A program made the translations under genes and the position numbers. A stretch of DNA of 64,000 nt, from the NCBI GenBank assembly GCA_965223325.1, contig CBDCWI010000002.1, positions 1,440,001-1,504,000 on the forward strand. Reading direction: 5' to 3'. Below are positions 2,807 through 11,459 of this stretch, one piece after another (position 1 is the stretch's first letter; every line of letters begins with the position of its first letter). The stretch is from Candidatus Multivoradales bacterium (GTDB taxonomy: Bacteria > Acidobacteriota > Thermoanaerobaculia > Multivoradales > Multivoraceae). The notes beneath the pieces were generated by a model. The model had not been told where the DNA came from. It made no database searches and worked only from the letters and a program-made list of their open reading frames with translations.

Positions 2807-4024
2807 TCAGCCGGCGTGCCCCAGGCGACTGGTGATGGCCAGGCGACGCGCCTGGCCGACCGCGTTGCGCCCACCCTTCTTGGCTTCGTAGAGCGCTTCG
2901 TCGGCCAACTTGAGCATCGTGTCGGCGTCGCGGCCGTTCTCGGGGAAGGTCGCGATGCCGCCCGACATCGACACGATTCCAAGTGGCTGCTTCTCGCGAT
3001 GGGGGAACGGATGCGCCGCAATGATGCTTCGCACCTTCTCGGCCACTACCCGAGCTCCCTCGGCGTCGGTCTCGGGCAAGACGAGCAGGAACTCCTCACC
3101 GCCGAAACGACCAAGGCGATCGTAGTCGCGGGTTGACGAGTCGACCAGCCGCGCCAGGTCACGCAGCAGATCGTCACCGGCCATGTGGCCGTTGGTGTCG
3201 TTGTAGTTCTTGAAGTTGTCGAGGTCGAAGAGGAGTACCGAGGAGCGGTGTCCCTTCTTACGGGCGCGATTGATCTCGCGCTCGAGGAAATCCCTGATCG
3301 AGGCTTTGTTGTCGACCTGTGTCAACTTGTCGAGCTGGGCTGAACGGCGGACCTCCTTGAACTGCGCGGCATTGTGGTACGTCAGGGCACCCATCTGAGC
3401 GATCAAGCCGAGCACCTCACGCGACGCCGAGGGCGTCCGCCGTGGGTTGCTCACGCACAAGACCCCATGGCACTCGTCGTTGAAGATCATCGGCGCCGCG
3501 ATGCTCATGACGAAGCCGGGAAGAGACTGGCGCTTGCCAACGATCGAGGTGCGTGACGTCGCCTGAAGGAGATCTTCGCGTGTCATGACCCGCTTGGCAC
3601 GCAGCAACAGACCGAGCTCGCCTTCGTGCGCCGGGAAGTCCATACCGACGATCTTCGAGGTTCCGGGGTGAACGGCGACGGCGCGCATGCGGCGCAGCCG
3701 GTCGCCCTCCTTGCGCAACAGAACGACAGCACCCGAAGGCTCGAAGGTCTTGACGATGACCGCCAACAGCACCTGCGGAATGTTTCGCGACGAAGACAGA
3801 CTGTCGAGCTGCTTCGAGAGGGTCAGGAACTCCTGAATGAACTGAGTCTGAACCTGGAGATCATGATGAGCGGTTGCCAGCTGGCGCTTCGCCTTACCGA
3901 AGTTCTCCTCCGAGATCACCAACGAACGCCGCGCATGCGACCGTGACTGCACGACAGCGAACAGGCAGGTCGCCAGAACGACGGCCAAGGCAACCGCCGC
4001 GATCAACAGAATCCATTGGGTCAT
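2807..4024 (-). CDS. Membrane-anchored GAF + GGDEF diguanylate cyclase
   Basis: N-terminal TM helix, coiled coil and GAF-like region; DKLTQ, DLDNFKNYNDTNGH and GGEEF active site, with an RxxD I-site (RDYD) five residues upstream. Confidence 0.92.
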   Translation of the reverse strand: MTQWILLIAAVALAVVLATCLFAVVQSRSHARRSLVISEENFGKAKRQLATAHHDLQVQTQFIQEFLTLSKQLDSLSSSRNIPQVLLAVIVKTFEPSGAVVLLRKEGDRLRRMRAVAVHPGTSKIVGMDFPAHEGELGLLLRAKRVMTREDLLQATSRTSIVGKRQSLPGFVMSIAAPMIFNDECHGVLCVSNPRRTPSASREVLGLIAQMGALTYHNAAQFKEVRRSAQLDKLTQVDNKASIRDFLEREINRARKKGHRSSVLLFDLDNFKNYNDTNGHMAGDDLLRDLARLVDSSTRDYDRLGRFGGEEFLLVLPETDAEGARVVAEKVRSIIAAHPFPHREKQPLGIVSMSGGIATFPENGRDADTMLKLADEALYEAKKGGRNAVGQARRLAITSRLGHAG

Positions 4025-4103: not shown

Positions 4104-6326
4104 CTATATTGTATTTCGACCCTCACACAACCTTTCGCGCAGCCGCGACCAACGACGGCCCGAATCCCCGCCCTTGATGGCCTTTCCCAGCGCCCGGGCT
4201 TCGCCGACGATGACGACCAGCCGGCTTCCCCGCGTCACGCCGGTGTAGACCAGATTGGCCCTCAGCATCGGCCAGTGCTGCATGGCGAGCGTCATGACGA
4301 TTGCTGGATACTCGGAACCCTGCGCCTTGTGAATGGTGGTCGCATAGGCGAGGACCAACTGATCGAGCTCGCCGAATCGGTAGACCGTCTCAGAACCGGT
4401 GCCGGGTCGCGCAGCGGCCTCCTGGAAGACGACGCCGAGCTCTTCGGTTTCGGGGTCGATCCGTTGGACCACTCCTAGATCACCGTTCCAGACCTCTTTG
4501 TCGTAGTCGTTTTCGATCTGCATGACCTTGTCGCCCACTCGATAGGTCCAACCAAAACGCTCAACTTCAGATTGCTCGCCGCGCTTTGGGTTGAGGGCCG
4601 CTTGCATCACCAGGTTGAGCGCCCTGGCACCGAGCGTTCCGCGCTGCATCGGGCAGAGGACCTGAACGTCACGTTTGGGATCGAGACCGAAACGATCCGG
4701 AATTCGGTTGCGCACCAGCTGCAGGATCTTTCGGTGCGCGTCGTCGGCATCGGTTGCCGGCACAAAGTAGAAGTCGGAGAGCTCGGCGCCTCGGTTGCTG
4801 ACGTTCAGTTCGGGCATATGCCCCTGATTGATGCGATGCGCATTGACCACGATGCGGCTCGCTTCCGCCTGTCTGAAGATCTCGACCAGGCGCGCTACCG
4901 GCAGCGCTCCGGAGTCGATCACGTCGCGCAACACCTGGCCCGGACCGACCGACGGCAACTGGTCGACGTCACCCACCAGGAGGAGCGCACCATCGTCAGG
5001 CACCGCATCGACCAGGGCCGCCATCAAGTTGATGTCAACCATCGAGGTCTCATCGGCGACCAACAGACCGCAGTCGAGCGGAAGATCGGCACAGCGTTTG
5101 AACAGGCCGGTCCTGGGGTCGACCTCGAGCAATCGATGGATCGTCTTCGCCGGTAGACCGGTCGACTCCTGAAGGCGCTTTGCCGCACGGCCGGTCGGCG
5201 CACACAGAGCGACCTCGACACCCTTCGCAACAAGCACTTCGAGAATCGCGCGCACGAGAGTCGTCTTGCCGACACCGGGCCCACCGGTGATCACCAGCGC
5301 CTTCGACAAGAGCGACGCTTCGACGGCCCGCCGCTGACTGGCTGAGAGTTCGACGTCGAGCTTCTTCTCTACCCAACGTGTGGCGGCCTCCGCATCGATG
5401 TCCATCCACGGCGGCGCTCCCTGGCTCAGCTGCAACAACTTGCGCGCCGTTACAACCTCCGCCTCCCACAAACGGCGAGGAAAGATCGATGGGCGATCCT
5501 CGATCACATCTTCAATCAGAACGCCGCCATCGCCGAGTTCGAGGGTCAACGCCTGGCTCAGAATCTCGCCGTCGATCTCGAGGAGCTCGGTAGCGCGCAC
5601 CAGCAACTCGTCCTTGGGCAGAGCACAGTGCCCCTGCCCCACCGACTCCCAGAGTGTGTAGGCCAGCCCGGCGCGTGCACGGATCATCGAGTCGCGCGGC
5701 ACGCCGAGCCTTTCTGCCACCCCATCGGCAGTCACGAAACCGATCCCCCGAATGTCGCGCGCCAGACGGTAGGGATTCTCCTGGATCAGCGGCACCGCAT
5801 CGGCGCCGTAGGTCTTGTAGATGCGCACCGCCCGCGATGTCCCGACACCGTGCGACTGAAGAAACACCATGATCTCGCGCACCGCTCGTTGCTCGGCCCA
5901 GCCCTCGAGGATGTTGCGGATGCGTTTGGGGCCAACCCCGGGAACGGTGTTCAAACGTTCCGGGTGGTGATCGATCACGTCAAAGACCTGATCGCCAAAG
6001 GCGGCCACCAGGCGCCTTGCCATCTCCGGGCCGATGCCGCGAATCAACCCCGAACCCAGGTAGCGCTCCATCCCCTTGGCCGTCGACGGTGGCGCCGTCA
6101 CCAGATGCTTCGTTACGAACTGCACTCCATGCTCGACGGTGTTCTTCCACTCACCCGAAGCTTGAATGAACTCGCCCGCCGTCACGGCACCGGCCCGGCC
6201 AACGACTGTCACCAGCTCCCGTCTGCCGCGCACCTTGACGCGTAGAACAGCGAACCCGTTTTCGGGGTTGTGAAAGGTCACCCGCTCGACGGTGCCGGCA
6301 AGCGCCTCTCGTTCGTTAGAGGACAC
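4104..6326 (-). CDS. recD2: ATP-dependent RecD-like DNA helicase RecD2
   Basis: N-terminal GTVERVTFHN, HhH repeats (GIGP, GVGPKR, GIGF), Walker A GGPGVGKT, APTGRAAK, DETSM, LVGDVDQLPSVGPG, AYATTIHKAQGSE. Start trimmed to GTG 6326. Confidence 0.93.
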   Translation of the reverse strand: MSSNEREALAGTVERVTFHNPENGFAVLRVKVRGRRELVTVVGRAGAVTAGEFIQASGEWKNTVEHGVQFVTKHLVTAPPSTAKGMERYLGSGLIRGIGPEMARRLVAAFGDQVFDVIDHHPERLNTVPGVGPKRIRNILEGWAEQRAVREIMVFLQSHGVGTSRAVRIYKTYGADAVPLIQENPYRLARDIRGIGFVTADGVAERLGVPRDSMIRARAGLAYTLWESVGQGHCALPKDELLVRATELLEIDGEILSQALTLELGDGGVLIEDVIEDRPSIFPRRLWEAEVVTARKLLQLSQGAPPWMDIDAEAATRWVEKKLDVELSASQRRAVEASLLSKALVITGGPGVGKTTLVRAILEVLVAKGVEVALCAPTGRAAKRLQESTGLPAKTIHRLLEVDPRTGLFKRCADLPLDCGLLVADETSMVDINLMAALVDAVPDDGALLLVGDVDQLPSVGPGQVLRDVIDSGALPVARLVEIFRQAEASRIVVNAHRINQGHMPELNVSNRGAELSDFYFVPATDADDAHRKILQLVRNRIPDRFGLDPKRDVQVLCPMQRGTLGARALNLVMQAALNPKRGEQSEVERFGWTYRVGDKVMQIENDYDKEVWNGDLGVVQRIDPETEELGVVFQEAAARPGTGSETVYRFGELDQLVLAYATTIHKAQGSEYPAIVMTLAMQHWPMLRANLVYTGVTRGSRLVVIVGEARALGKAIKGGDSGRRWSRLRERLCEGRNTI

Positions 6327-6387
6327 GATCAGGATCTTGTCAGGTTGCCCACGGCGGACGCCGCCCTTGCACATAGGATCGCAAGCC

Positions 6388-8403
6388 ATGGACACGAAAC
6401 CCCTCGACCGACTGCTGCCACGACCGCGAAGCGCTACTGCGGGTGGGAGCACCTGTGATCTTCCGCCAACGCTGACCTGGGCGGCCACTGGAGCTTCAGA
6501 TTCCCGACTCGAGGCGCATCTCGAACGGGCGCTCGCAACCGTCGACCGTCGGCTCGAGCGCGCACCAGTCGAGGGAGATGGGCAGAGCGCTGGTGCAGAC
6601 GTTCTTCTGGTCCAGGAGGGCGGCGGCGCCGCAGGAGTCCCGCAGAAGGGCATACCCCCACAGGGCTACTCGCTCCACGTCCGTGAGCGCGCTCGCAGCG
6701 ACGACGTAAGACCGCGAATCGAGATCCGAGCAGCCGACGCCCGGGGCATCTACTACGGCATCAGGACTCTCGAGCAGTGGTTGACCCTGCACAGGGAATC
6801 GGTCGCTCGCGAGGCCCGGGTTGCCACTCTCGAGGTCCAGGACGCGCCAGACTTTTCCTATCGCGGGCTGATGCTCGACATCAGCCGCAACCGTGTTCCG
6901 ACAATGGAAACACTGCGCGCGCTCGTTGCGTGGTTGGCCTCCCTCAAGTTCAACCAGCTGCAGCTGTACGTCGAACACACCTTCGCGTACGACGGGCACG
7001 AAGTCGTGTGGAAAGACGCCAGCCCCCTCACTGCCGAAGAGATGCGATGGCTCGACCAGTTCTGCTACGACCACTTCATCGAGTTGGTGCCCAACCAGAA
7101 CAGTTTCGGTCACCTGCACCGATGGCTGATCCACGAACCCTATCGCCAGCTCGCCGAATGTCCCGACGGAATCGAGCACCCGTTCTCTCCTGATCGAGAG
7201 CCCTTCAGCCTCTGCCCTACCGACCCGCACGCTCTCGCCCTGCTCGAAGATCTCTACGGCCAGCTGTTGCCGAACTTCCGGTCGACGCTCTTCAACGTTG
7301 GTCTTGATGAAACCTTCGATCTCGGCCGCGGGCGCTCCGCCGACGAATGCCGCGAGAAGGGCCCCGGCCAGGTCTACCTCGAGTGGCTGCGCGCAGTCTG
7401 TGAACTGGTCGCGCGACACGATCGTCGAACGCTGTTCTGGGCCGACATGCTGCTCGAGAAGAACCTGCTCGGCAACGAGTTGTTCGCCGACCAGAAGGCA
7501 CGACAGAAAGCCATCGAGCAGGTCCCACGCGATGCCATCGCCTTGATCTGGGGGTACGAAGCCGGACACGACTTCGCCGGTCAGACCCGAACCGTCGCCG
7601 ACACCGGACTCGAACACTGGGTGTGCCCAGGAACCAGCTCCTGGAACTCTGCCACCGGTCGCACCGCCAACGCGCTGGCGAACATTCACAACGCGGCCAT
7701 CGCAGGCCAAGCAAGCGGTGCCACCGGAATCCTGCTGACCGATTGGGGCGACTTCGGTCACCTCCAGCCGGAAGCCATCTCCTGGCCGGGCCTGCTCGCT
7801 GCCGCCGAATTCGGCTGGTGCCTCGAGGGGGCCCGGGCTCCCGAACCGGACACCTTCCTGGACGCCCTCCTCACCTGGGCGATTCCCTTCGCGGAACCCG
7901 AGCCGCCTGCCAACGCCGCCGATCTGGCACGCGCCATCCTCGAGCTCGGTGCGCTTTCCCGGCGAACCGGGGCGCGCGAATGGAACGGCTCGGCACTCTT
8001 TTATCTCTTCGTCTTTCCAGACACCACACTCGACCATCGTCGCTTCGAGGGTCTCGACACCGCTTCGCTGGCCGGAGCCCGCGCGGCGATCGCTCTGGTT
8101 CGCCAGAAGTTGGGCCAGGGAACCTACGTCGAGCGATCACTCGACTGGGCCGCACGCCTGGCAGACCTCGGCGCACGACTCGGCCTCGCACGCCTGGCCA
8201 ACGCTCGCAAGGACCGCGAGCGCGCGCTCTCGGGAATCTCGGCGGGTGAACGAGGCGCTCTCCGGGAGAGTGCCCGCACCTTGCAGCGGGACCTTCCCGG
8301 TTTGTGGCGCGAACGTTCCCGGCCCGGCGGCCTGGATCTCTCGAGCGCCTGGTTCGATCGCTTCTGTCGCGCTCTCGACAGAGCGGCTGCTCCGGAGACC
8401 TAG
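6388..8403 (+). CDS. Glycoside hydrolase family 20 (beta-N-acetylhexosaminidase-like)
   Basis: GH20 domain 2 (QGYSL...GIYYG), RGLMLDISR, QLQLYVEH, NSFGH, catalytic GLDE, WGDFGH. ATG at 6388; no clear signal peptide. Confidence 0.88.
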   Translation: MDTKPLDRLLPRPRSATAGGSTCDLPPTLTWAATGASDSRLEAHLERALATVDRRLERAPVEGDGQSAGADVLLVQEGGGAAGVPQKGIPPQGYSLHVRERARSDDVRPRIEIRAADARGIYYGIRTLEQWLTLHRESVAREARVATLEVQDAPDFSYRGLMLDISRNRVPTMETLRALVAWLASLKFNQLQLYVEHTFAYDGHEVVWKDASPLTAEEMRWLDQFCYDHFIELVPNQNSFGHLHRWLIHEPYRQLAECPDGIEHPFSPDREPFSLCPTDPHALALLEDLYGQLLPNFRSTLFNVGLDETFDLGRGRSADECREKGPGQVYLEWLRAVCELVARHDRRTLFWADMLLEKNLLGNELFADQKARQKAIEQVPRDAIALIWGYEAGHDFAGQTRTVADTGLEHWVCPGTSSWNSATGRTANALANIHNAAIAGQASGATGILLTDWGDFGHLQPEAISWPGLLAAAEFGWCLEGARAPEPDTFLDALLTWAIPFAEPEPPANAADLARAILELGALSRRTGAREWNGSALFYLFVFPDTTLDHRRFEGLDTASLAGARAAIALVRQKLGQGTYVERSLDWAARLADLGARLGLARLANARKDRERALSGISAGERGALRESARTLQRDLPGLWRERSRPGGLDLSSAWFDRFCRALDRAAAPET

Positions 8404-8496
8404 AACCCGAGGAGCTCATGCGAGCCCGCGGGCTGCCAATCCGCGGTCGGTACTGGGGCAAACCATCTTCCACTTGTGCGAACGCAGTGTTCAGGG

Positions 8497-8518
8497 GGGC
8501 CTCTGTGCTAGTGTTTTC
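8497..8518 (+). promoter_or_regulatory. Extended -10-like motif, copy 1 (upstream of the amidase)
   Basis: GGGCCTCTGTGCTAGTGTTTTC; 18 of 22 positions identical to 11071-11092. Confidence 0.5.
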
Positions 8519-8650
8519 CTCTTGCCAGCGCTCAAGGCGCAACCCCTTCCCACCCGAGTTGTCCTAGACACCCGCGGAATCTGATCTTCTCCGCCAACCA
8601 ACCGTCTGACCTCTGCCCAACCTATCCGGCCGACCGCCCCTCCCACCTCC

Positions 8651-9781
8651 ATGGCGAACGTCAACCGACGCATGAAAGAGCGCCTCCTGCGCGAGGTGGT
8701 GCACGACAATGTCCAGACTCGAGAAGGCCGTCGGGGAACACCCCGGCGCATACGTACCCGGCTTCATCCGAGCCACTGGTTGGCTCTCGCACTGGCGATT
8801 CCCACTCTGGCGTTCGTTGGTGCCTGGCTGGCAGGGGGCGAGAGCGGACTCGGGGCCTTTGCGATGACTCTCGTACCCTCACGGCAAGCGCCGGTCGCGA
8901 TACCCGACCGGGTGATCGACAAAGAGGCTCCCGACGCCAGAGAACGTGAGCTGTTTCCCCTCGACGTGCGACGGGTGATGATCGACCCCGGGCATGGCGG
9001 GCACGACCCTGGAACGCGGGCGCCCGGCGGACTCGAAGAGAAAGAAATCGTGCTCGATGTCGCCTTGCGGCTGCGCGAGCTGTTGGAGGAGCGCGGCTAC
9101 GAAACCGTGATGACCCGCGAGACCGACGACTTCCTCGAGCTCGACGAGCGGGTCGCCGCCGCCAACGCGGCGTCCGCCGATGTCTTCGTTTCGATCCACG
9201 TCAACTGGCTCGAAACACGCAACGAACGGGGCATCGAGACCTACTATCTCGGTCCCACCGAAGATCCGGTCCTCGAGGCCCTGGCACGCTCAGAGAACCG
9301 CAACTCGGGCTACTCCCTGGCCGACTTTCGCCACTTACTGCAGGGGGTCTACGAGCAGGTTCGCGAAGACGAGTCGCGCGAGCTCGCCGAAACCGTCCAG
9401 ACCTCGATGGTGCGCTCACTGCGCCAGACCAATCCCGAGATCAGAAACCGTGGCGTCAAGACCGCGCCGTTCGTGGTGCTGATTGGAACCGAGATGCCAG
9501 CGGTGCTCGCCGAGGTGTCTTGCCTCTCGAACGCGAAGGAAGCCGAGCTGCTGGCCAAGCCGCTCTACCGCCAGTACATCGCCGAGGCTCTCGCCAAGGG
9601 TCTCGACGGCTTTGCCGCCGAACGTGGCACACCACCGGTTCCCGAACCCGATCCGGCGGCTTCGTCCATCGAGCTTCCCACCGATCGAACTGTGTCATCG
9701 CTGGTGCCACAAGCGGCACCTTTGCCTGCCCTTCCCGCCTTGGACTCGTCTTCACAGGCAGCGTCTAAGACACCTTCCTGA
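8651..9781 (+). CDS. N-acetylmuramoyl-L-alanine amidase (Amidase_3) with N-terminal membrane anchor
   Basis: IDPGHGGHDPG, EKE, MTRETD, VSIHVN, GIETY, APFVVL, MPAVLAEV. Basic N-terminus followed by a TM helix; Pro-rich C-terminal tail. Confidence 0.93.
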   Translation: MANVNRRMKERLLREVVHDNVQTREGRRGTPRRIRTRLHPSHWLALALAIPTLAFVGAWLAGGESGLGAFAMTLVPSRQAPVAIPDRVIDKEAPDARERELFPLDVRRVMIDPGHGGHDPGTRAPGGLEEKEIVLDVALRLRELLEERGYETVMTRETDDFLELDERVAAANAASADVFVSIHVNWLETRNERGIETYYLGPTEDPVLEALARSENRNSGYSLADFRHLLQGVYEQVREDESRELAETVQTSMVRSLRQTNPEIRNRGVKTAPFVVLIGTEMPAVLAEVSCLSNAKEAELLAKPLYRQYIAEALAKGLDGFAAERGTPPVPEPDPAASSIELPTDRTVSSLVPQAAPLPALPALDSSSQAASKTPS

Positions 9782-9857
9782 ACGTCTTCCAAAGCACCTT
9801 CCGAACCGTCTTCCAGAGCATCTTCCAGAGCATCTTCCAGAGCACTTTCAGAAAAAC
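9774..9857 (+). repeat. 12-bp tandem repeat (CTTCCAGAGCAT-like, 6-7 units)
   Basis: Units start at 9774, 9786, 9798, 9810, 9822 and 9834, plus a degenerate unit at 9846. Confidence 0.85.
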
Positions 9858-9923
9858 CACGCCAGGACCTGCCGTCGCCCTCACCGGCCGACGTCACAGC
9901 CCTCAGAAAGGGACACGAGAACA

Positions 9924-10973
9924 ATGACCCAGAAACTTCAAGTCGGAATCGACCTGGGAACCTCCCGCAGCTCGATCTCCGCATCCAACGGCAAGAAGCA
10001 CTACGTCGAGAGCTACGTTGGTTGGCCAGTCGACATGGTGGCGCGCAAGGTCCTCAAGAAGAAAGTCATGGTGGGCACCGAAGCACGCGAAAACCGGCCG
10101 ATGCTCGACCTCCACCGGCCGCTCGAGAGAGGCCTCATCAAAGAGGGCTCCGAGAAGGAAGACGAAGCGGTGCGCGAGCTCCTCAGTCACCTGATCGGTC
10201 TGGTGCACGAGAACGGTAGCGATACCAGGATCAACGCCGTCGTCGGCGTGCCCGCCGAAGCGATGCGGGTCAACAAACAGAACCTGCGGCGCTCGATGCA
10301 GGGGCTGGTCAACGGCCTGATGATTGTCTCCGAACCTTTCGCCGTCGCCTACGGGCTCGAAGCGCTTCTTCATACCCTGGTCATCGACATCGGAGCCGGC
10401 ACGACCGACTTCTGCGTCATGATGGGTCGCCTGCCGGGCGAGGACGATCAGCGCACGTTGACCGTCGCCGGTGACACCGTCGACGAGCAGCTTCTCCAGC
10501 TGGTGCGTGAGAAGCATCCCGATGCCCAGGTCACCATTCATATGGTGCGCGGCTGGAAGGAAGAACACTCTTTCGTCGGCAAGGCCAAGAACCCGATCAA
10601 GGTCGAGGTGCCCATCAACGGCAAACCCACCGAGATCGACATCACCGAAGAAATGCGCATCGCCTGCGAGAGTCTGGTCGATCCGATCAGCGAGACCCTG
10701 CTCGACCTGATCGCCAAGATCGAACCTGAGTTTCAAGAAAAGGTGCGACAGAACATCATCCTCACCGGTGGGACCGGGCTGATTGGTGGCCTGGCGATGG
10801 CCATTCAGGAAAACCTCGAGGACGTCGGTGGCGGGCGCGTTCGAGTGACCAAGGACCCGATCTACGTGGGTTCAGATGGCGGTCTTTCGATCGCCAGCGA
10901 CGCCAAAGCCGCCGACTGGGAGAAGCTCAAATCCGAACCGGATGCTGGGTCCGAAAAGGCGAGCAACAAGTAG
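9924..10973 (+). CDS. mamK: MamK-like actin-family ATPase (349 aa)
   Basis: GIDLGTS, AVVGVPA, VSEPFAVAYGL, VIDIGAGTTDFC, DQRTLTVAGDTVDEQL, KEEHSFVG, IACESL, QNIILTGG, KDPIY. These match MamK rather than MreB signatures as recalled. ATG at 9924. The symbol denotes family, not a demonstrated magnetosome role. Confidence 0.85.
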   Translation: MTQKLQVGIDLGTSRSSISASNGKKHYVESYVGWPVDMVARKVLKKKVMVGTEARENRPMLDLHRPLERGLIKEGSEKEDEAVRELLSHLIGLVHENGSDTRINAVVGVPAEAMRVNKQNLRRSMQGLVNGLMIVSEPFAVAYGLEALLHTLVIDIGAGTTDFCVMMGRLPGEDDQRTLTVAGDTVDEQLLQLVREKHPDAQVTIHMVRGWKEEHSFVGKAKNPIKVEVPINGKPTEIDITEEMRIACESLVDPISETLLDLIAKIEPEFQEKVRQNIILTGGTGLIGGLAMAIQENLEDVGGGRVRVTKDPIYVGSDGGLSIASDAKAADWEKLKSEPDAGSEKASNK

Positions 10974-11070
10974 CGAACGAGGTCAATCGCAGTAGGGGCA
11001 ACGGGAAGGCCAAAACAGGCGCCAGAACGGCGATCAGGTATTGACCAGTTGGTCGAATAGGCCCTCTAAC

Positions 11071-11092
11071 GGGCCAATGTGCTAACGTTTTC
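11071..11092 (+). promoter_or_regulatory. Extended -10-like motif, copy 2 (upstream of the RRM gene)
   Basis: GGGCCAATGTGCTAACGTTTTC, containing TG-C-TAACGT. Confidence 0.5.
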
Positions 11093-11213
11093 GGTTGTCC
11101 GAACCCCCTCTCAAGATTCCAAGTACACCTGTCGCTCGCGCGCTTCGATTCGGCTTTCGGACCTCGGCCAATCCAAGCGACCGTCGTCAGACCGTTCCGG
11201 GAGAATTCTCCAC

Positions 11214-11459
11214 ATGTCAGTACGTATCTACGTCGGCAACCTTCCATTCGAAACCACGGAAGATGCCGTCCGCGAGCTGTTCGCAGGCTATGGTTCTGTT
11301 TCCTCCGTCCGCCTCATCAACGACCGTGAGACAGGCCGCCCGCGCGGCTTCGGTTTCGTCGAGATGGCAGATGGCGGTCCGGAGGCCATCCAGTCCCTCG
11401 ATGGAAAGGACTTTGGGGGTCGCCCGCTGAGGGTGAACGAGGCGCGCCCGCGCACCTAG
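11214..11459 (+). CDS. Single-RRM RNA-binding protein (Rbp-like, 81 aa)
   Basis: RNP2 IYVGNL, RNP1 RGFGFVEM, GRPLRVNEARPR; GGAG upstream. Confidence 0.95.
   Translation: MSVRIYVGNLPFETTEDAVRELFAGYGSVSSVRLINDRETGRPRGFGFVEMADGGPEAIQSLDGKDFGGRPLRVNEARPRT

Follow-up and report, generated by a model that had tools for sequence, protein, structure and literature searches.

What is the role of an actin gene that resembles mamK in a bacterium of the Acidobacteriota, and does it work alone? The gene lies in a window of 64,000 nucleotides, the whole stretch of DNA analysed here, which belongs to a genome (G000) that is 98.2% complete in 2 contigs.

9924..10973, + strand: gene of a MamK-family actin-like ATPase (P0001), 349 aa, identified by reading frame, HMM, structure and tree.

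Positions 9924-10970 of the window translate without a stop into a 349-aa actin-fold ATPase. The list of open reading frames also contains a longer, TTG-started frame from 9483. The alignments of relatives begin at residue 2-5 of the actin, which makes the ATG at 9924 the probable start codon. A frameshifted or fused actin gene was considered and rejected, as the frame that begins at 9483 shares sequence with the upstream amidase gene and has no support from relatives.

The preliminary description of this DNA took the protein to be MamK-like, and not MreB, from its motifs. All of those motifs are present in the translation (GIDLGTS, GVPA, VSEPFAVAYGL, DIGAGTTD, DQRTLTVAG, KEEHSFVG, IACESL, QNIIL, and KDP), and the C-terminal W-x-x-L occurs as DWEKL. 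The nucleotide-site residues D10, G12, E137, D155, G157, G159, and G282 are kept in 11-12 of the 12 clade rows. E137 and D155 align with E143 and D161 of MamK (offset +6), which we take to be ATPase residues. As judged from the sequence, the nucleotide-binding and hydrolysis motifs of the actin fold are intact in this MamK-like protein.

The best NCBIfam match of the actin is to the MamK model NF040964 (377 bits, E 7e-113, cut-off 400). The BeeR model gives 223.5 bits (cut-off 530), and the MreB models PRK13927 and TIGR00904 give 76.5 bits (cut-off 293) and 66 bits (cut-off 366), respectively. The sole fitting model in Pfam is MreB_Mbl, with 87.5 bits. Among PDB matches, E is ~3e-80 for MamK (5ljw, 5jyg, and 5ljv), 2e-42 for BeeR (8r2n), and 7e-14 for MreB (4czl). 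The structural modelling, which covered the monomer fold of the actin, gives the best fit to the MamK filament subunit 5ljv (TM 0.87/0.93, rmsd 2.1 Å, 41% identity).

In a quick IQ-TREE search (LG+G4), the actin falls into a clade of 13 rows (SH-aLRT 100). This clade is one of four MamK-like subclades, and the forks among the four are open in the tree, so that a bearing on the origin of MamK, as proposed in the preliminary description, is no more than possible. A separate clade, also of 13 rows (SH-aLRT 99), holds P0138 and P0207, the representatives nearest the PDB MamK. For convenience, it is called the clade nearest solved MamK, a label based on nearness to the PDB MamK alone. The MamK-like superclade comprises 74 rows (SH-aLRT 92), BeeR-like proteins form a separate sister clade, and MreB is a distant outgroup.

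By model, structure, and superclade, the actin is a member of the broad MamK-like family, sister to BeeR, and is neither MreB nor BeeR. The reading of the motifs is thereby borne out by NCBIfam, PDB matches, tree, and fold fit, including the HMM comparison and the phylogeny that had been proposed as checks: MamK is the best model and the protein lies outside MreB. The actin is not a magnetosome MamK in the strict sense, as its score is under the NF040964 cut-off and it falls outside the clade of the characterised MamK's relatives in the tree. It is not a BeeR, as it is below the cut-off of that model and is devoid of the 30-50 aa N-terminal extension, the first strand of the modelled actin beginning at residue 4. 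It is not an MreB either, as it is under both model cut-offs and neither mreC nor mreD is found beside the gene among the 21 ORFs of window 1-24000 (Pfam). MamK homologues outside magnetotactic bacteria have been published before, as stated in passages of bioRxiv 10.1101/682252 (citing Lefevre 2013) and PMC11929497.

The constant neighbour of the actin gene is an amidase gene, from which it is separated by a gap containing a tandem repeat.

8651..9781, + strand: gene of an N-acetylmuramoyl-L-alanine amidase (Amidase_3), 376 aa, directly upstream of the actin gene.
9771..9853, + strand: tandem repeat with the 12-nt unit CTTCCAGAGCAT in 6.7 copies, which runs across the stop codon of the amidase gene into the gap.

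In 62 of 67 related loci, the amidase gene directly precedes the actin gene on the same strand. The loci without the pairing are L026 (contig edge), L039, L065, L066, and L068. Of 201 genomes of the class Thermoanaerobaculia, 132 have the actin and 131 the amidase ortholog (130 and 129 of 199, respectively, when the unpublished genomes G104 and G175 are set aside). By family, the presence of the actin and that of the amidase are the same (f14, 0/27; f13, 0/4; f15, 10/28; f18, 12/20). The actin gene is single-copy, with the amidase directly upstream, in 128 of the 132 actin genomes (126 of 130 without the two unpublished ones); the hit-to-hit gaps are 2-290 nt, with a median of 40. In a 129th genome, G131, the two matches overlap by 2 nt. 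The amidase ortholog is found in none of the 69 genomes that are devoid of the actin, and, given the relatedness of the genomes, fewer independent events underlie the co-occurrence than these counts suggest. The actin had been described as stand-alone, which does not hold: the amidase is its constant upstream neighbour, and the two are jointly present or absent. The assignment to a probable Acidobacteriota cell stands, as most of the 67 related loci are from Thermoanaerobaculia, Acidobacteria, or Acidobacteriota. A literature search, which covered sources other than subscription journals, found no prior description of a pair of MamK-like actin and amidase.

The gap between the two genes is 142 nt here, with the tandem repeat, compared with a median of ~40 nt elsewhere. 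No promoter-like or terminator-like site is found in the gap, and a scan of 8300-11300 gives nothing above shuffles. The local neighbours of the actin gene are the amidase, an RRM protein, and a GH20 hydrolase. No third gene is conserved with the pair: the best family upstream is present in 16 of 59 loci, the best family downstream in 17 loci, and the best real candidate, a PilZ-domain protein gene right after the actin gene, in 16 loci. No sigma-factor gene is conserved in either flank.

The amidase is composed of a basic tail, a hydrophobic segment, a linker, and a catalytic domain.

8651..8761, + strand: net-basic N-terminal tail of the amidase, residues 1-37, probably cytoplasmic.
8663-8722, + strand: tail helix motif R-[LI]-K-[RKQ]-x-[LIM]-[LV]-x-x-[LAV]-[VA]-x-[ED]-N-[VLI], residues 5-24.
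8762..8839, + strand: uncharged hydrophobic segment of the amidase, residues 38-63, a stretch of 26 aa.
8975..9604, + strand: Amidase_3 catalytic domain with an insert at ~201-244, AmiA/AmiB/AmiC-like.

The Amidase_3 match (173.9 bits, residues 109-318) is the sole Pfam domain of the protein; neither AMIN nor another Pfam targeting domain is found. AmiB (3ne8), AmiA (8c2o), and AmiC (4bin) each give one contiguous alignment over residues 108-325, and the short amidase 5emi gives a two-piece alignment that skips residues 201-244. All of 35 sequences have H115, E130, and H183, and at least 90% of them have E288. On sequence grounds, the metal ligands and the extra insert, which the protein has in common with AmiA/B/C, are intact, and the insert may be auto-inhibitory, as the family likeness suggests. 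The scores on the AmiA/B/C equivalog models are far under the cut-offs (107/400, 92/700, and 86/532 bits, respectively). Unlike AmiA/B/C, the protein has no AMIN domain and has the 37-aa basic tail and membrane segment instead. Two further Amidase_3 proteins are encoded in the genome, each with 300-370 aa of additional sequence at the N-terminus. The amidase of the pair has only the tail, the membrane segment, and a variable linker, and so itself lacks any recognised targeting domain.

The n-region of the amidase contains 12 lysine and arginine residues against 4 aspartate and glutamate residues. The tail motif is present in 55 of 62 amidase loci (regex); all of 35 sequences have N20, and at least 90% of them have R7. 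The conservation of the tail motif equals that of the catalytic residues, and the linker past the membrane segment is hypervariable. The uncharged stretch of 35 orthologs has a median length of 21 aa (range 15-48) and is at most 17 aa in 5 of them. The segment is probably a signal-anchor transmembrane helix; that it is the h-region of a long cleavable signal peptide is less likely.

To what could such a conserved tail bind? A complex prediction places it on the actin, between two walls of a cleft.

10317..10370, + strand: actin residues 132-149 (strand and SEPFAVAYGL helix), one predicted cleft wall, including the clade-specific L149.
10890..10928, + strand: actin residues 323-335 (C-terminal helices with D331, W332, and L335), the other predicted cleft wall.

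The median score of the amidase tail with the actin is 0.74 (0.77, 0.73, and 0.74), and the best of three controls scores 0.00. The runs share at least 89% of their contacts, with a pLDDT of 61-62 for the partner. The complex score expresses how confident a model is; its mark is reached by 116 of 157 solved complexes and by 2 of 215 mismatched pairs, counts that hold only roughly here because self-built alignments were used. Tail residues 5, 8-9, 11-13, 15-17, 19-21, and 23-24 are predicted to contact actin residues 132-149, 168-170, and 323-335, which form the cleft between subdomains IA and IIA. The amphipathic tail helix is therefore predicted to sit in the IA/IIA cleft of the actin. Partner helices have been solved in the same cleft (subdomains 1 and 3 in actin), in actin with WH2 domains and in ParM with ParR, to which the predicted contacts correspond by fold position, so the pass of the complex prediction may partly reflect memory of those structures. 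In contrast to ParM-ParR, the cargo here would be a membrane wall hydrolase, not DNA. The IA/IIA cleft is also part of the longitudinal subunit contact in actin-like polymers, so the tail might reach only filament ends or monomers.

The conservation of the actin points to the same cleft. W332 never varies, and the conservation of D331 and L335 is 90% or more. Of 332 actin positions, 20 have a residue that is invariant in the window's clade and seldom seen in the rest of the MamK-like proteins. Seven of these, R115, R122, L149, R169, A327, D331, and K334, are among the 22 predicted interface residues, compared with 13 among the 310 other positions (one-sided Fisher p = 9e-5, in a test that uses the predicted interface and related sequences). 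In the clade nearest solved MamK, the positions of A327, D331, R122, and R169 are occupied by L/I/M, Y/H, L/I, and R/S, respectively.

On balance, we lean towards a two-gene module of Thermoanaerobaculia, a filament plus an amidase, that controls where the wall is cut. We infer its polymerisation, membrane topology, and cellular role as follows. The MamK-like protein would polymerise on the cytoplasmic side, driven by ATP. The amidase would run from its basic tail through the hydrophobic membrane segment to a catalytic domain that acts outside the cytoplasmic membrane. The hydrophobic IA/IIA cleft of the actin would grip the conserved amphipathic helix of the tail, and the binding would set the place, and perhaps the time, at which peptide stems are cut from glycan strands by the amidase. 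The purpose may be daughter-cell separation or local wall remodelling. A more dynamic version is rather doubtful: the actin would be cytomotive and, gripping the amidase tail with the barbed-end cleft of a growing or treadmilling filament end in the way that ParM grips ParR, would drag or push the enzyme through the plane of the membrane. If it were true, MamK-like actins would be general positioners of membrane cargo with an adaptor helix for each clade, and magnetosome MamK would be just one specialisation.

The two genes could also be co-inherited and co-expressed without their proteins ever touching, the filament being a scaffold or carrying other cargo and the tail binding, for example, an anti-sigma-like partner or the divisome. 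Operon neighbours can exist without binding one another. In addition, 9 of 35 amidases have weak matches to CU044_5270, a family of unknown role (best E 4.5e-4), 1 of 35 matches an anti-sigma family, and the PilZ-domain protein in 16 loci points to other partners in part of the clade. We nevertheless consider this unlikely in view of the strictly joint presence and absence of the two genes, the complex score compared with its controls, the enrichment of clade-specific residues at the predicted cleft, and the lack of a sigma-factor or other gene conserved in the flanks of the pair.

It is improbable as well that the amidase begins with a long export signal that is cleaved off, of the Sec or Tat type as known from E. 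coli AmiA and AmiC, to whose n-region the actin binds only before export, so as to retain, escort, or localise the precursor. With its median length, the uncharged stretch can span a membrane, no consistent small-x-small site is seen across the clade, and none of the 35 orthologs has a listed match to a Tat-signal family (E up to 0.1), in a search from which short signal models may be filtered out. On the other side, the basic run of the tail is directly before the hydrophobic segment, several tails have R-R at that place, and the predicted tail binding is equally compatible with a precursor. Moreover, the segments of 15-17 aa in 5 of 35 orthologs are often followed by G-S-S-R, which makes a cleavable signal peptide possible, and a tail that is cleaved off could not tether the mature enzyme.

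The genome has its own mreB, sought as the preliminary description had suggested. An mreB-mreC-mreD-PBP2-rodA operon is found at G000:C2:3551360-3556850, ~2.1 Mb from the window, with an MreB that reaches 485 bits on the MreB_Mbl model of Pfam. It is thus very improbable that the window encodes a further elongasome actin of the MreB type, guiding wall synthesis: relatives of the window actin are named 'rod shape-determining protein MreB' in public sources and MreB_Mbl is its sole fitting Pfam model, but it reaches just 66-76 bits on MreB models with cut-offs of 293-366, the true MreB sits elsewhere with mreC, mreD, PBP2, and rodA, and MreB is distant in the tree.

Whole-genome profile searches for magnetosome genes covered MamI, MamP, and MamQ. 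MamI has no match in a search without positive control, MamP reaches 23 bits (cut-off 300), and MamQ reaches 114 bits (cut-off 250), a generic LemA-level match on the other contig. NF040962, NF040967, and NF040968, tried as Mam models, proved to be other than Mam families. The claim that neither a mam nor an mreCD context is nearby agrees with the Pfam scan of the 21 ORFs in window 1-24000 and with the whole-genome searches, on which the absence of mam genes from window 24001-64000 is based. With MamI, MamP, and MamQ below the cut-offs and mreBCD encoded separately, the proposed non-magnetosome role of the actin is very likely.

A metagenome scan with P0138 gave 5 loci, and L082 was annotated as the only long one. 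L082:6965-8017 scores 490 bits on the MamK model, above the cut-off, and no Mam family is found in the 7 kb that flank it on each side; its neighbours are hemL, ATP synthase, rimO, and two-component genes. L082 failed as a positive control for the Mam models, as no Mam family is found at the locus, and the 400-bit cut-off of NF040964 is itself not specific to magnetosome loci. MamK is indeed the best HMM match of the window actin, just under the cut-off. It is hardly tenable, however, that the gene is a regular mamK that has left its magnetosome cluster, or that its host is an unrecognised magnetotactic bacterium, since the MamI, MamP, and MamQ searches find nothing above the cut-offs in this nearly complete genome, the gene is single-copy and amidase-syntenic across its class, and its well-supported clade is outside the clade nearest solved MamK.

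Several known systems are similar to the pair in part. MamK of Magnetospirillum magneticum (5ljv, 5ljw, and 5jyg) is of the same family and fold as the window actin, which differs in having no magnetosome context, in belonging to another subclade, and in scoring below the MamK cut-off. Its constant partner is the amidase, compared with MamJ or MamY, presumably the partners of MamK. Magnetosome MamK forms a two-stranded, non-staggered filament that depends on ATP. BeeR of Opitutus terrae (8r2n) is presented in passages of PMC11929497 as a MamK-related actin of non-magnetotactic bacteria, conserved inside one phylum and of unknown function, with a disordered N-terminal extension of 30-50 aa as its hallmark. 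The window actin is likewise MamK-related, outside magnetotactic bacteria, and conserved within one phylum, but it is without the extension and far from the score of a BeeR.

The closest parallel in working is a bactofilin. According to passages of PMC10945521, BacA binds LmdC, a bitopic M23 peptidase encoded next to it, at the cytoplasmic tail that forms the N-terminus of the peptidase; this tail is short and conserved, and the pair is conserved across many genomes. Here, too, the gene of a putative polymer adjoins a hydrolase gene, the two are co-conserved, and the tail is conserved and predicted to bind. BacA-LmdC consists of a nucleotide-independent bactofilin and an M23 endopeptidase with a beta-hairpin tail, whereas the pair here consists of an actin-family ATPase and an Amidase_3 protein with a helical tail. 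The two pairs would therefore work alike, if the predicted contact is real, and are unrelated by homology.

Bacterial actins are used for wall synthesis (MreB), division (FtsA), plasmids (ParM), and magnetosomes (MamK). If the favoured reading is true, the link of a MamK-family actin to a peptidoglycan amidase would be a new job for the family, and the actin would be the second independent polymer, after the bactofilin of LmdC, to position a wall hydrolase via a cytoplasmic tail. The pair also offers a testable partner and a candidate binding site for a large protein group publicly called 'MreB', with at least 6581 proteins at E up to 1e-10 among 8000 candidates scored in a word-based search. 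Finally, MamK-type sequences occur outside magnetosome clusters, some of them above the HMM cut-off, which matters for the use of mamK as a marker gene of magnetotactic bacteria.

The MamK-family actin gene of the window was taken in the preliminary description to stand alone. It does not: an amidase gene lies directly upstream, and this order is kept in most related loci and genomes.

Features of the amidase–actin pair in the window
8651–9781, + strand: Amidase_3 N-acetylmuramoyl-L-alanine amidase (Pfam), 376 aa, directly upstream of the actin gene
9771–9853: tandem repeat, 12-nt unit CTTCCAGAGCAT in 6.7 copies, alternatively a 24-nt unit in 3.5 copies
9924–10973, + strand: actin gene, open frame of 349 codons

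In 62 of 67 loci (from contigs, one genome per species), the actin gene is directly preceded by the amidase gene. The other five are a contig edge (L026), two broken matches (L039 and L065), and two distant loci, L066 (43% identity) and L068 (46%), which are members of another subclade. Among 201 genomes sampled evenly from the class of the window, the actin is present in 132 and is essentially single-copy (the two matches each in G155 and G171 are part-length pieces on small contigs), and the amidase ortholog is present in 131 (35-sequence profile, E ≤ 1e-70). The amidase gene is directly upstream on the same strand in 128 of the 132 actin genomes. In a 129th the genes overlap by 2 nt, in two they lie at the ends of separate small contigs, and in one (G139) there is no amidase match. 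The amidase ortholog is missing from all 69 genomes that lack the actin. The family-level pattern is identical for the two genes (for example 28/28, 0/27, 0/4, 10/28, 12/20, and 17/19), and within the several mixed families they share their presence and absence genome by genome. When the unpublished genomes G104 and G175 are set aside, the counts are 130/199 for the actin, 129/199 for the amidase, and 126/130 for the upstream pairing; because the genomes are related, such counts are not equivalent to 200 independent trials. No other flanking gene is conserved, the best upstream gene recurring in 16 of 59 loci. In the window, a gap of 142 nt separates the two genes, whereas hit-to-hit gaps elsewhere have a median of 40 nt. 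The tandem repeat reaches across the stop codon of the amidase gene and into this gap, in which a scan finds no promoter-like or terminator-like site.

Several neighbours are confined to part of the loci. A gene for a PilZ-domain protein of ~514 aa starts ~18 nt past the actin stop in 16 loci (checked in L028, 9021–10565, + strand, where the PilZ domain is N-terminal and scores 51 bits), a hint that some members of the clade receive a c-di-GMP input. Such a gene is absent after the actin gene in the window, and the genome holding the window (G000) has domain-level PilZ similarity only, elsewhere. Just upstream of the amidase gene, a GH20 beta-N-acetylhexosaminidase-like gene (6292–8403, + strand) places two wall- or amino-sugar-related enzymes ahead of the actin, an arrangement seen in 1 of 67 loci (L007). 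A few kb upstream are genes for a GGDEF diguanylate cyclase (2807–4024, − strand) and a histone-deacetylase family protein (1861–2784, − strand). They are probably coincidental; among the 67 loci, 5 have a GGDEF gene in their flanks, at varying positions, and 1 has the deacetylase gene. The amidase–actin pair is also found, at 60–63% identity, in loci labelled delta proteobacterium (L042), Rokubacteria (L049), Binatia (L055), and Methylomirabilota (L060). The last three were placed in the tree and nest within the Acidobacteriota clade; mislabelled bins or a transfer of the pair would explain this.

The amidase is composed of a tail, a hydrophobic stretch, a hypervariable linker, and a catalytic domain, in that order. 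The tail is 33–48 residues long and strongly basic (K+R 9–16, D+E 2–7), and it is followed by an uncharged hydrophobic stretch with a median of 21 aa. According to the positive-inside rule, the tail is therefore expected on the cytoplasmic side, where the actin is. The tail carries a helix motif, R-[LI]-K-[RKQ]-x-[LIM]-[LV]-x-x-[LAV]-[VA]-x-[ED]-N-[VLI], which a regular expression finds in 55 of the 62 amidase loci, with variants visible by eye in several others. Asn20 of the motif is invariant among 35 sequences, level with the metal ligands H115, E130, and H183. The catalytic domain aligns in a single piece with AmiB, AmiA, and AmiC and in two pieces with short Amidase_3 (residues 201–244 skipped), indicating that the amidase carries the insert typical of regulated cell-separation amidases, for which we infer an auto-inhibitory role. 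The amidase has neither an AMIN domain nor any other recognised targeting domain. The two other Amidase_3 proteins of G000 have N-terminal extra regions of 300–370 aa.

Complex prediction for the actin with amidase residues 1–42 (alignments of 40 and 35 sequences, respectively) places the tail on the actin. The median score is 0.74 (0.77, 0.73, and 0.74), the best of three controls is 0.00, partner pLDDT is 61–62, and contacts agree by at least 89% between runs. Of 157 solved complexes, 116 attain the score mark, as do 2 of 215 mismatched pairs; these counts hold only roughly here because custom alignments were used. Tail residues 5–24 are predicted to contact actin residues 115–122, 132–149, 168–170, and 323–335, with the lowest-error pairs between Asn20 and actin residues 132–134. 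By its position in the fold, the predicted site corresponds to the subdomain IA/IIA cleft, which receives WH2-type helices in eukaryotic actin and ParR in ParM. Because complexes of the WH2 and ParR type have already been solved, the high score may partly echo those known structures.

The sequences of the clade point to the same surface. Signature positions (invariant in the amidase-linked clade, at most 15% in the other 62 MamK-like rows) number 20 among 332. Seven of them (R115, R122, L149, R169, A327, D331, and K334) fall in the 22 predicted interface residues and 13 in the other 310 (odds ratio 10.7, one-sided Fisher p = 9e-5), a result that supports rather than proves the model because the interface is predicted and the sequences are related. 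Further signature positions, 112, 116, 147, and 150, directly adjoin the predicted interface. The clade has a small A327 in place of L/M/I and an acidic D331 in place of Y/F/H, substitutions that would suit a basic helix held in a pocket particular to this clade.

A filament-plus-amidase module is, in our judgement, a fairly probable reading of the pair. An ATP-dependent polymer on the inner membrane face would grip the amidase by its tail, and would thereby set the site of amidase cutting, for septum splitting or local remodelling. The cleft may be accessible along the polymer or just at filament ends and in monomers. It is rather unlikely that the hydrophobic segment is instead a cleavable signal and not a stable anchor, although the segment is just 15–17 aa in 5 of 35 orthologs and is often followed by G-S-S-R; if it were cleaved, the actin could bind the tail solely before export.

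The actin on which the module would be built is an ATPase with the actin fold and belongs to the MamK family. The motifs listed in the preliminary description are all found in the translation of 9924–10973, and its choice of MamK over MreB holds for NCBIfam models, solved structures, and structural fit. The protein scores 377 bits on the MamK model NF040964 (cut-off 400), 223.5 bits on the BeeR model (cut-off 530; BeeR is the MamK-related actin of Opitutus terrae), and 66–76 bits on the MreB models (cut-offs 293–366). Its only Pfam match is MreB_Mbl (87.5 bits); the MamK model is absent from Pfam. Among solved structures, three MamK entries (E ~3e-80) rank ahead of BeeR (2e-42) and MreB (7e-14). 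An AlphaFold model built with 40 relatives (pLDDT 85.7) fits the MamK filament subunit 5ljv with TM 0.87/0.93 and rmsd 2.1 Å at 41% identity, versus TM 0.84/0.83 for BeeR and ~0.74 for MreB. The nucleotide-site residues are conserved. In the structure-search alignment, E137 and D155 pair with E143 and D161 of MamK, which we take to be its ATPase residues.

G000 (6.69 Mb, 2 contigs, 98.2% complete) contains two MamK-model matches only, the window actin and a true MreB (Pfam MreB_Mbl, 485 bits). The latter's gene lies ~2.1 Mb away on the same contig and is followed by mreC, mreD, and PBP2-type transpeptidase, RodA-family, and RNase E/G-family genes. The separate mreBCD that the preliminary description proposed to look for is thus present. 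A whole-genome search for mam genes, likewise proposed, covered the three families MamI, MamP, and MamQ and gives nothing above cut-off. MamI has no match, in a search that is silent in control genomes too and hence has no positive control; the best scores are 23 bits for MamP (cut-off 300) and 114 bits for MamQ (cut-off 250, on the other contig), the latter read as generic LemA-level similarity because the model also matches six control genomes below cut-off. The lack of a MamI match and the sub-threshold MamP and MamQ scores argue against a displaced mamK, and the separate mreB-mreC-mreD-PBP2-type-RodA-family cluster against the cell's own MreB.

Relatives of the actin among 1.84 billion cluster representatives number 1183 at E ≤ 1e-3 and 175 at E ≤ 1e-30. 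An 84-row tree (IQ-TREE quick search, LG+G4, SH-aLRT support only) was built from 70 full-length or long representatives of 150 listed, 12 translated loci, the window protein, and the G000 MreB as outgroup, fragments below ~300 aa being excluded. The 8 rows of BeeR-like proteins (support 95) form the sister group of a superclade of 74 MamK-like rows (support 92), which divides into four groups whose branching order has no resolution. One group (13 rows, support 99) contains P0138 and P0207, which of all representatives come closest to the solved MamK of Magnetospirillum (463 and 416 bits, versus 273 for the window protein), and is labelled solely by that closeness. The window protein is in another group, within a 13-row clade (support 100) that contains all Acidobacteriota loci and has P0124 as its sister (support 96). 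MamK-model scores form a continuum of 212–508 bits across the four groups. By descent, the window protein belongs to the MamK-like family in the broad sense and is neither MreB nor BeeR; from magnetosome MamK in the strict sense it differs in score, context, and clade, the three criteria tested.

Other parts of the superclade differ in architecture and surroundings. P0192 (768 aa), which clusters with the representatives nearest solved MamK, fuses FtsZ (TIGR00065, 351 bits, residues 4–315) to a MamK-model domain (446 bits, residues 434–765). A clade of 14 long proteins (P0134–P0136, P0139–P0142, P0144, P0145, P0148, P0150, P0153, P0156, and P0159; SH-aLRT 99; 523–1232 aa) has the MamK-like domain C-terminal, and the N-terminal parts (190–900 aa) show no Pfam domain in the 7 members scanned. 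In L066 (5941–9029), from another MamK-like subclade, a gene for a 271-aa protein with no Pfam family and a coiled-coil look by eye is upstream of the actin, preceded on the opposite strand by a MinD/ParA-type P-loop ATPase gene; neighbours thus seem to differ between subclades. The metagenome contig L082, the sole long locus obtained for a P0138 relative (57% identical), carries at 6965–8017 a gene whose product reaches 490 bits on the MamK model (cut-off 400). Around this gene lie hemL, rimO, and genes for ATP synthase subunits a and c, a pseudouridine synthase, a response regulator, and histidine kinases, with no Mam family within ~7 kb on either side. Above-cut-off MamK proteins therefore also occur outside magnetosome clusters, and the curated cut-off is no guarantee of magnetosome context.

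MamK homologues in non-magnetotactic bacteria are already in print, as indicated in a preprint (bioRxiv 10.1101/682252, citing Lefevre 2013) and in the BeeR paper (PMC11929497). The closest described system by mechanism is bactofilin BacA with LmdC, which has no sequence kinship to the actin–amidase pair. In that system, bacA adjoins the gene of the bitopic M23 peptidase LmdC, the N-terminal cytoplasmic tail of LmdC (aa 1–38) binds the BacA polymer with a KD of ~15 uM, and 226 species keep the two genes as a pair (PMC10945521). In a search outside subscription journals, we find no published account of an amidase as partner of a MamK-type actin. What appears to be new is the well-conserved partnership of an already known protein family, whose predicted interface is specific and testable. 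A MamK homologue standing alone would have been of modest interest; the strict amidase pairing together with the predicted tail-in-cleft contact is the part that deserves follow-up.
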